This document shows, one piece after another, positions 1,758-48,613 of a stretch of DNA of 48,613 nt. This DNA comes from Escherichia phage haarsle, in the sequence record NC_049828.1; one strand, written 5' to 3'. The notes beneath the pieces were generated by a model, which was not told where the DNA came from, did not search any database, and worked only from the letters and a program-made list of their open reading frames with translations. Position 1 is the first letter of the stretch. The number at the start of each line of letters is the position of its first letter. The translations under genes were made by a program, and so were the position numbers.

Positions 1758-1913
1758 ATGTTAAAACTTGCTGACATTAAATTCCCGATCACCTTCCAAT
1801 CAAAAGGAGTCGGACACTTCCACTTCACCAGCCATAATGAGTGCATTATTTATCCTTGCGGCGGAAACGGGCATTGGCATAAAAGCACATGCACAATTGA
1901 TCACATGATTTGA
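1758..1913 (+). CDS. small Cys/His-rich hypothetical protein (51 aa)
   Basis: ATG at 1758 after RBS CAGGAGAAAG; not in the supplied ORF track because under 60 aa. Confidence 0.4.
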   Translation: MLKLADIKFPITFQSKGVGHFHFTSHNECIIYPCGGNGHWHKSTCTIDHMI

Positions 1914-3698: not shown

Positions 3699-3836
3699 AT
3701 GGCTAAAAGCAATCGTAAAATGTTGATTAACGCATTCGAAAAGGCAGCGCTTGAGCGTGGTTGGAATGACTCATTTCACACAGCAAACTGTATCCGCCGT
3801 TACGGATTCAAGAATTGCCGCTCCTGGGCACGTTAA
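3699..3836 (+). CDS. small hypothetical protein (45 aa)
   Basis: Strong RBS AAAGGAGGAA before ATG 3699. Confidence 0.4.
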   Translation: MAKSNRKMLINAFEKAALERGWNDSFHTANCIRRYGFKNCRSWAR

Positions 3837-3986
3837 ATGGCTTCATGGTATGATCTTGATGCGCATTACCTTGATATGGATTGCGCCATGGTTGAAATGA
3901 TTGAACAGGCCGCACTAGAGGATCGACCATTAACGCAATCTGATTTTGACGATTTTGTGCGCGATGAAATCTATTACATGAGCTAA
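3837..3986 (+). CDS. small acidic hypothetical protein (49 aa)
   Basis: ATG directly after the upstream stop; its stop TAA abuts module P4. Confidence 0.4.
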   Translation: MASWYDLDAHYLDMDCAMVEMIEQAALEDRPLTQSDFDDFVRDEIYYMS

Positions 3987-47031: not shown

Positions 47032-47062
47032 TTTTAAATCCTCGTTCGTTGTCGATGCGCTT

Positions 47063-47106
47063 AATATACCAATCAGAGGCGCATCGGTTTTAACAAAAAG
47101 TGCTAT
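47063..47106 (-). promoter_or_regulatory. Promoter-like module M7 (TATATT)
   Basis: 20-mer at 47087-47106 overlapping the TAG stop; 22-bp spacer with dyad CGATGCGC..GCGCATCG. Confidence 0.6.
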
Positions 47107-47393
47107 TCAACAACAGATCCAGTTAAAGAGATAAGCTGTCTTGTGATCTTGTGTCTGCGATACTGACGCGCAACAACCGGAAGATTTTCACCGCTCTGAT
47201 GACCGAAGCAGATCGGCAACTCATCCTCAAGAGAGCGGAAGCCGCCAAATTCAAGATCCCGCACTGGCCTTGATCGCCACGCTTCAATAAATCCGCGTTC
47301 GTCACGCGTGATATAGCGGTATATGTTCGGGAGGGGCAATTGTATCCCCTCAAAATCCACGGTATCGGTATAGCTGTAAAACTTAGAACTCAT
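47103..47393 (-). CDS. hypothetical protein (96 aa)
   Basis: Start at MSSKFY with RBS GGAG; the ORF track start at 47453 overlaps the upstream gene. Confidence 0.5.
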   Translation of the reverse strand: MSSKFYSYTDTVDFEGIQLPLPNIYRYITRDERGFIEAWRSRPVRDLEFGGFRSLEDELPICFGHQSGENLPVVARQYRRHKITRQLISLTGSVVE

Positions 47394-47535
47394 AATCAAC
47401 AACTCCAAATTCGTTAACAATTTGCGCCTTATAGAAGCCGCCATTTTTCGCAAGGTTGTAGCAGGCCGCTACAGTTTCAAATTCGCGCACTTCCGGCTGG
47501 CTGTTTTCGTGTTCCCAGGTAATCAGAGTAACCAT
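47383..47535 (-). CDS. small hypothetical protein (50 aa)
   Basis: Conserved leader and RBS GAGGATTTGAAA before the ATG; not in the ORF track because under 60 aa. Confidence 0.45.
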   Translation of the reverse strand: MVTLITWEHENSQPEVREFETVAACYNLAKNGGFYKAQIVNEFGVVDYEF

Positions 47536-47568
47536 TTTCAAATCCTCGCATTCGTTGTCGATGTGTGT

Positions 47569-47612
47569 AATGTACAGGAATACGAGGATTCAGTTTTAAC
47601 AAAAAGTGCTAT
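47569..47612 (-). promoter_or_regulatory. Promoter-like module M8 (TACATT)
   Basis: 20-mer at 47593-47612 abutting the TAA stop at 47613-47615; 22-bp spacer. Confidence 0.6.
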
Positions 47613-47879
47613 TTAGTCCAAGAGTTCGATTTCGCGCTCGCCAGTTAACGGATCTACAAGCCAGAATCCGAGCGCCTCGCCGTAAACACCGCCATAGAAT
47701 CCAAGCGCCGCCAGATCTTCACCTTTAACGAATACCAGATCCCCGCTACTGCTTACGTGAGACACGTTAACGATAACAGGAAAGGTGCGATCCTTAAATG
47801 CAGGCCGCAGGGCGTATCATCCGTTGTTGAGCAAACGGGCTTTGCGTTTCACTGGAATGGGTGCATTGATTCGCGCCAT
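47613..47879 (-). pseudogene. Gene interrupted by an in-frame TGA at codon 21 (47817-47819); uninterrupted product would be 88 aa
   Basis: Strong RBS AAGGAGAAATAAAA + ATG; same frame open before and after the TGA; gene ends at a canonical module junction. Confidence 0.5.
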
Positions 47880-47892
47880 TTTTATTTCTCCT

Positions 47893-48138
47893 TCATTGTT
47901 GATCGTGTTTAACTACCATCATAACATCACAGGACTCGTTAATGAATTTAGCCATACGTTTATCATCACCAGCAGGGATTAGCGCGTTAAACTCGCGCTT
48001 GCTACTGAATACCGTAACTTTATGAAACGATGCGAACGGCATCGACGGGAACTCGACTGTTTGCTTCAAGATCCGCAACCCCATCTTTTTGGCCCTTACC
48101 TGGGCCTCTGCAAGTTCAAAATCCATCTCATTAATCAT
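47893..48138 (-). CDS. hypothetical protein (81 aa)
   Basis: RBS GAGGAG; ATGA overlap with the upstream gene. Confidence 0.5.
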   Translation of the reverse strand: MINEMDFELAEAQVRAKKMGLRILKQTVEFPSMPFASFHKVTVFSSKREFNALIPAGDDKRMAKFINESCDVMMVVKHDQQ

Positions 48139-48407: not shown

Positions 48408-48442
48408 TTGCTATCTCCTGAGAGGTTCGTTTCGATGTGTGT

Positions 48443-48486
48443 AATGTACCCGATCAGGCGGATTCAGTTTTAACAAAAAGTGCTAT
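48443..48486 (-). promoter_or_regulatory. Promoter-like module M9 (TACATT; spacer contains GATC)
   Basis: 20-mer at 48467-48486; 22-bp spacer; leader CATCGAAACGAA. Confidence 0.6.
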
Positions 48487-48494
48487 TTCTCAAC

Positions 48495-48613
48495 TGGCGA
48501 TTATTCCATCTATTCCATTAATCAGGAATAACAGGAATAACTCATTCGAGATCACCTGGATTGTGAGATCTTGAGTTTGATCAATTTTAATCAGTTGATT
48601 AACTTTTTGTGTG
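48495..48613. repeat. Right-end repeat region: 2 TATTCCAT, 2 AGGAATAAC (9-bp phasing, mutually inverted), 3 GATC sites within 33 bp, palindrome TTGATCAA
   Basis: Read from the sequence; non-coding. Confidence 0.5.

Follow-up and report, generated by a model that had tools for sequence, protein, structure and literature searches.

Spontaneous opal (UGA) nonsense mutants and the pseudogenised accessory genes of tailed phages have this much in common: one base change introduces a premature stop into a gene that the phage can do without, the reading frame is unbroken elsewhere, and the phage is still viable. A coliphage UGA can also be read through as part of a programme, as in the Q-beta coat gene, where programmed read-through of a conserved UGA adds an essential extension to give protein A1. 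In E. coli itself, the selenoprotein genes fdhF, fdnG and fdoG carry an in-frame TGA where homologues have Cys. The interrupted gene described here, from Escherichia phage haarsle (NC_049828.1), is like the opal mutants in all the respects listed above, like the Q-beta gene in being a coliphage mRNA with a UGA open to few-percent misreading by host tRNA-Trp, and like the selenoprotein genes in having Cys-bearing homologues at the position of its TGA. Its intact orthologues pSf1_0029 (gp29, Shigella phage pSf-1), bas07_0063 (JakobBernoulli) and aaroes_19 share 89-94% protein identity with it and agree with it in length, stop, ribosome-binding site and place in the genome, but codon 21 is TGT (Cys) in them and residue 44 is Arg, against TGA and Ser in haarsle. 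Here, we present evidence that the haarsle allele is most probably a recent, natural TGT-to-TGA nonsense mutation, inactivating an accessory gene that this T1-like coliphage can dispense with.

The window, i.e., the whole stretch of 48,613 nucleotides that was analysed, was placed by megablast and tblastn against GenBank phages in the T1-like Drexlerviridae (Tempevirinae), near Hanrivervirus. The closest to it are pSf-1, JakobBernoulli, G29-2, herni and aaroes, all Hanrivervirus phages, with approximately 93% nucleotide identity around the gene at 47613..47879. Sibling contigs continue from position 48613 directly into position 1, and the window therefore represents a complete, circularly permuted genome. 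The locus comprises the following features, all on the minus strand:

47613..47879 (read 47879..47613, 267 nt), minus strand: interrupted 88-codon gene plus TAA, orthologue of pSf1_0029 (gp29) and bas07_0063
47880..47893, minus strand: ribosome-binding region AAGGAGAAATAAAA, directly 5' of the ATG
47817..47819, minus strand: in-frame TGA at codon 21; TGT/TGC (Cys) in orthologues
47817..47879, minus strand: terminated product, a 20-aa basic peptide MARINAPIPVKRKARLLNNG
47786..47809, minus strand: small hairpin from folding prediction, 8 bp with the 7-nt loop GCAUUUA, beginning 7 nt beyond the UGA
47613..47765, minus strand: the sole downstream in-frame ORF, 50 aa from GTG at codon 39, without a Shine-Dalgarno sequence and inside a predicted hairpin
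47558..47614, minus strand: intergenic module of 57 nt, overlapping the TAA of the gene at its 5' end and including the repeat aaATAGCACnnnTTGnTAAAA

The gene reads in a single frame as MARINAPIPVKRKARLLNNG-TGA-YALRPAFKDRTF...EIELLD-TAA, with AAGGAG as its ribosome-binding site, and beyond the TGA at codon 21 this frame is open to the TAA, with no further stops and no indels. An initial inspection of the letters of the window (hereafter, the sequence-only reading) had described a strong ribosome-binding site, one frame and a lone in-frame TGA at codon 21, and all of these were confirmed on the sequence. The same reading had the gene's TAA meeting a repeated module, and the TAA indeed overlaps the 5' end of the intergenic module (AAATAGCACTTTTTGTTAAAA...).

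Comparing orthologues at the position of the TGA, as the sequence-only reading had proposed, returned a sense codon everywhere. We read 14 orthologous DNA loci, 11 from GenBank phages and three from IMG/VR. Codon-by-codon comparison gave TGT (Cys) at codon 21 in 11/11 GenBank-phage orthologues, while the IMG/VR orthologues (n = 3) had TGT, TGT and TGC, so that a Cys codon occupies this position at all 14 loci (13 TGT, one TGC). The TGA is therefore the outcome of one third-position substitution at plus-strand position 47817, where the mutated base is T on the plus strand and A in the mRNA sense. The 11 annotated or aligned GenBank orthologues are uninterrupted 87-88-aa ORFs, and every annotated locus among them is one intact 87-88-aa "hypothetical protein" CDS (e.g., pSf1_0029 and bas07_0063). 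At the protein level, 24 matching clusters were found in a 5.8-billion-sequence database, the largest representing 181 members, and 22 of the 24 are 87-88 aa long. A sense codon in an unbroken frame among orthologues is what defines a nonsense allele, and the suggestion of a recent nonsense mutation, one of several alternatives in the sequence-only reading, is supported by this single TGT-to-TGA change. Across the whole family, residue 21 is variable (C/R/Y/G/D/T); close homologues also have Arg (P0013) or Tyr (P0017) there, and Gly, Gly, Asp and Thr occur in the distant members.

The pooled dN/dS among orthologues is 0.18, indicating purifying selection on the gene family. This value, the uninterrupted orthologues (n = 11) and the 24 protein clusters show that the locus is a genuine gene with an interruption, rather than a chance pair of ORFs. 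The gene product matches PHROGs 9595/13367, both of unknown function; no Pfam domain was found in it, and its AlphaFold model (mean pLDDT 39.5) is too poor for a fold search. An exhaustive profile search among 1.84 billion representatives put the size of the family at five clusters at 50% identity. The conserved core extends from approximately residue 11-13 to the C-terminus, and the 20-aa product therefore loses almost all of it. The window allele carries six private bases: four are synonymous, one makes the stop and one gives R44S, at a residue that does not vary among 21 close homologues (alignment A2). R44S is one of the two private changes that the window has 3' of the stop. With only these two private substitutions to go by, dN/dS in that downstream part is 0.23, compared with 0.24 in the intact orthologues, a result that fits a very recent mutation and continued selection (e.g., through low-level read-through) equally well.

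Two further members of the family have unusual architectures. A distant homologue of 162 aa (P0025) has the family domain only in its C-terminal half (residues 85-161); its N-terminal half has a similar K-x-K-L-L-x-x-G-G-Y motif, which may reflect an internal domain duplication. A 118-aa protein (P0023), encoded on a 911-nt ENA contig, joins in frame the N-terminal ~60 residues of the upstream 81-aa gene to the C-terminal 58 family residues (RTFPVIVNVSHV...; compare window positions 48138-47613), and this arrangement implies a putative deletion fusing the two neighbouring genes in some relative.

Sibling contigs of the window were located via exact look-up of the neighbouring 81-aa protein. 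The identical 267-nt allele, TGA included, is present in the Logan assemblies of four runs (ERR13325509, ERR13324852, ERR13325844 and ERR14844724), whose contigs show 98.4-100% identity to the window in each aligned block and belong to a single lineage of >=99% identity. The gene caller behind these contigs called no gene at the position of 47613..47879. The ERR13324852 contig differs from the window by eight SNPs in 9.7 kb, by the absence of a 506-bp cassette and by CAA at a window-private TAA. Three of the four run accessions are neighbours, and the runs may come from one study; a literature search found no paper naming ERR13325509, ERR13324852, ERR13325844 or ERR14844724. No TGA allele was found in IMG/VR and JGI metagenomes, a weak negative given only three pattern-matching orthologues in IMG/VR. 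Because the allele is identical in four assemblies that are not copies of one another, we conclude that the TGA is a true allele, fixed in a natural and slightly diverse lineage.

The 57-nt intergenic module ("module M8") occurs in three copies, in minus-strand sense, at 47052-47108, 47558-47614 and 48432-48488, and its 5' part, AAATAGCACTTTTTGTTAAAA, matches the T1-like 21-nt direct repeat aaATAGCACnnnTTGnTAAAA. This intergenic direct repeat has been described in TLS, T1 and relatives, approximately 76 nt upstream of start codons and with no known function (PMC11447400). The segment absent from ERR13324852 is exactly one 506-bp module-to-module unit (~47108-47613), comprising a 52-aa and a ~96-aa gene, which suggests that recombination between the 57-nt modules gains and loses gene cassettes. 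In the minus-strand region that aligns to JakobBernoulli bas07_0066 (108 aa; window 48457-48613 continuing into 1-140), the window has four stops; the annotated ORF of bas07_0066 reads through the intergenic repeat (…IALFVKTESA is the repeat in translation), and there may be no real gene in either phage.

To place the interruption in its genomic context, we surveyed the window for broken genes by comparison with 85 JakobBernoulli CDSs. This gave just two in-frame TGA codons, along with one in-frame TAA; besides the TGA at codon 21 described above, there are two on the plus strand:

1911-1913, plus strand: second in-frame TGA, codon 52 of a ~293-aa hypothetical gene (1758-2642)
3834-3836, plus strand: in-frame TAA in a 95-aa gene (3699-3986), at a codon that is CAA (Gln46) in all relatives

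At the second TGA, JakobBernoulli, SFP17, vB_EcoP_06 and vB_EcoS-95 have Glu/Asp and an open frame, and the TGA itself recurs in the sibling contig ERR13324852. An ATG-started ORF of 227 aa (1959-2642) remains downstream of it, and in phage EC147 the ~293-aa gene has been disrupted independently. The 95-aa gene is otherwise 98% identical to its relatives and is intact in ERR13324852 and ten other contigs, so that the TAA is private to the window and either a private mutation or an error of one assembly. Taken together, these breaks fit ordinary mutational decay, in which accessory genes of this genome region are broken repeatedly and not specifically by UGA.

Several other explanations of the codon-21 TGA have to be weighed against a plain nonsense allele. 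A sequencing or assembly mistake, with TGT in the real phage, was one of the alternatives raised in the sequence-only reading; it would account for a single-base difference from all relatives, in a window that also holds a private nonsense codon (the TAA at 3834) absent from a sibling contig. We nevertheless reject it as highly improbable, since the same TGA recurs in four separately assembled runs whose contigs differ from one another by SNPs and a deletion. That reading had also raised programmed TGA read-through or recoding, for which we found no support. Among the 70 window genes that end at the same C-terminus as their JakobBernoulli orthologues, 21 use TGA as terminator, and ARAGORN detected no tRNA genes in the window, hence no phage-encoded suppressor tRNA; together these rule out a genome-wide reassignment of TGA. 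The stop and its context are not conserved among relatives and, unlike the UGA of Q-beta, this one is limited to a single lineage, with a sense codon in the relatives and no conservation indicating a programmed event. A more specific form of recoding would have the UGA decoded as selenocysteine by the host SelB and tRNA-Sec, and here the close orthologues with Cys exactly at the window TGA recall the classical selenoprotein signature, as does a small hairpin shortly 3' of the UGA with a loop that starts with G. For comparison, we extracted the genuine E. coli SECIS elements at fdhF codon 140, fdnG codon 196 and fdoG codon 196, in which pairing runs from the UGA onward and which have in common the core CGGU-N-GCA-R-GUCU, a bulged U and a loop with G23/U24. 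The phage hairpin at 47786..47809 lacks these features: its loop has U23/U24 and its 3' strand carries the bulge, nothing 3' of the phage UGA matches the core with three mismatches or fewer, and no Rfam family, SECIS families included, matched the phage sequence at E<=10. Moreover, the hairpin is already present in the TGT-bearing relatives, residue 21 is no conserved Cys in the family, and the lineage's second in-frame TGA replaces Glu/Asp, not Cys. Unlike fdhF, fdnG and fdoG, then, the phage gene has neither a SECIS hairpin directly 3' of its UGA nor a conserved Cys/Sec position, and the comparison with the three real elements effectively refutes selenocysteine, to which we give practically no credence.

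Another way to preserve function would be a split gene, in which ribosomes restart after the UGA and make a separate C-terminal protein. The 50-aa in-frame ORF from GTG39 could provide such a product, and the fusion protein P0023, with just the C-terminal 58 family residues behind another N-terminus, hints that this part is possibly a separable module. GTG39, the only in-frame start codon between the stop and the last two codons, is however 54 nt away from the stop, and no Shine-Dalgarno sequence was found in the 20 nt upstream of it (CCTTTCCTGTTATCGTTAAC). It is further covered by a predicted stable hairpin in the minus-strand mRNA (47740-47785; -27.7 kcal/mol for the 80-nt segment, z = -2.4 relative to shuffled sequences), a restart there would miss conserved residues 11-38, and no database records the 50-aa product as a gene. 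The ATG that overlaps the stop (GGATGA) belongs to another frame, which stays open for just eight codons. The statement of the sequence-only reading that there is no plausible internal restart was thus correct, and we reject reinitiation, which we consider very unlikely. The likeliest of these alternatives is a leaky stop, in which near-cognate tRNA-Trp read-through would give a low but sufficient amount of full-length protein with Trp21, the gene would be down-tuned and not dead, and the UGA would be tolerated or even favoured. Reporter measurements in E. coli K-12 BW25113 put UGA read-through between approximately 2% (37 °C) and approximately 4% (25 °C) (PMC10570021). The variability of position 21 (C, R, Y, G, D, T) indicates that Trp may be tolerated there, the dN/dS of the downstream codons equals that of intact orthologues, and the second in-frame TGA at 1911-1913 is common to the lineage. 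Against this, the fourth base after the codon-21 stop is U, and UGA-U would be a strong terminator; Poole et al. are said to have reported in 1995 that no other UGA context terminates as efficiently in E. coli. We found no read-through-enhancing signal: the 3' hairpin is shared with the TGT relatives and has an unremarkable folding energy (z = -1.3); the window-private TAA in another gene fits general decay and not a tolerance specific to UGA; and a dN/dS comparison with two private substitutions 3' of the stop is nearly powerless. We therefore regard a leaky but functional allele as unlikely, and its extension to the lineage as a whole, in which the UGAs at 47817-47819 and 1911-1913 would be dose-reducing "opal" alleles that are kept by tRNA-Trp read-through and tolerated or exploited, as rather more doubtful.

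The recent nonsense allele that we favour would have arisen by a third-position transversion from TGT (Cys) to TGA at codon 21 and become fixed in one closely knit lineage. Translation would initiate normally at the strong ribosome-binding site and then be terminated by RF2 at UGA-U after 20 residues, almost wholly removing the conserved core (~residues 11-88) and leaving an allele that is effectively null. At most, background decoding by tRNA-Trp, at the 2-4% seen on the E. coli K-12 reporter, might yield trace full-length protein with Trp21. As the lineage propagates despite the allele, we infer that the gene at 47613..47879 has lost its function and is dispensable under the conditions sampled. 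The allele is an ordinary phenomenon: compared with laboratory opal mutants, it is a natural allele in metagenome-derived assemblies, with no material difference otherwise.

For annotation, the locus is best recorded as a disrupted gene or pseudogene, and neither as two ORFs nor as a recoded gene. It also provides a worked example of how a Cys-to-TGA difference is, by itself, no evidence for selenocysteine. For the biology of these phages, the allele may be of mild use in assigning functions to the unknown early or accessory genes of Drexlerviridae, and it would amount to natural-knockout evidence that the conserved hypothetical pSf-1 gp29 family of T1-like phages is non-essential for propagation.
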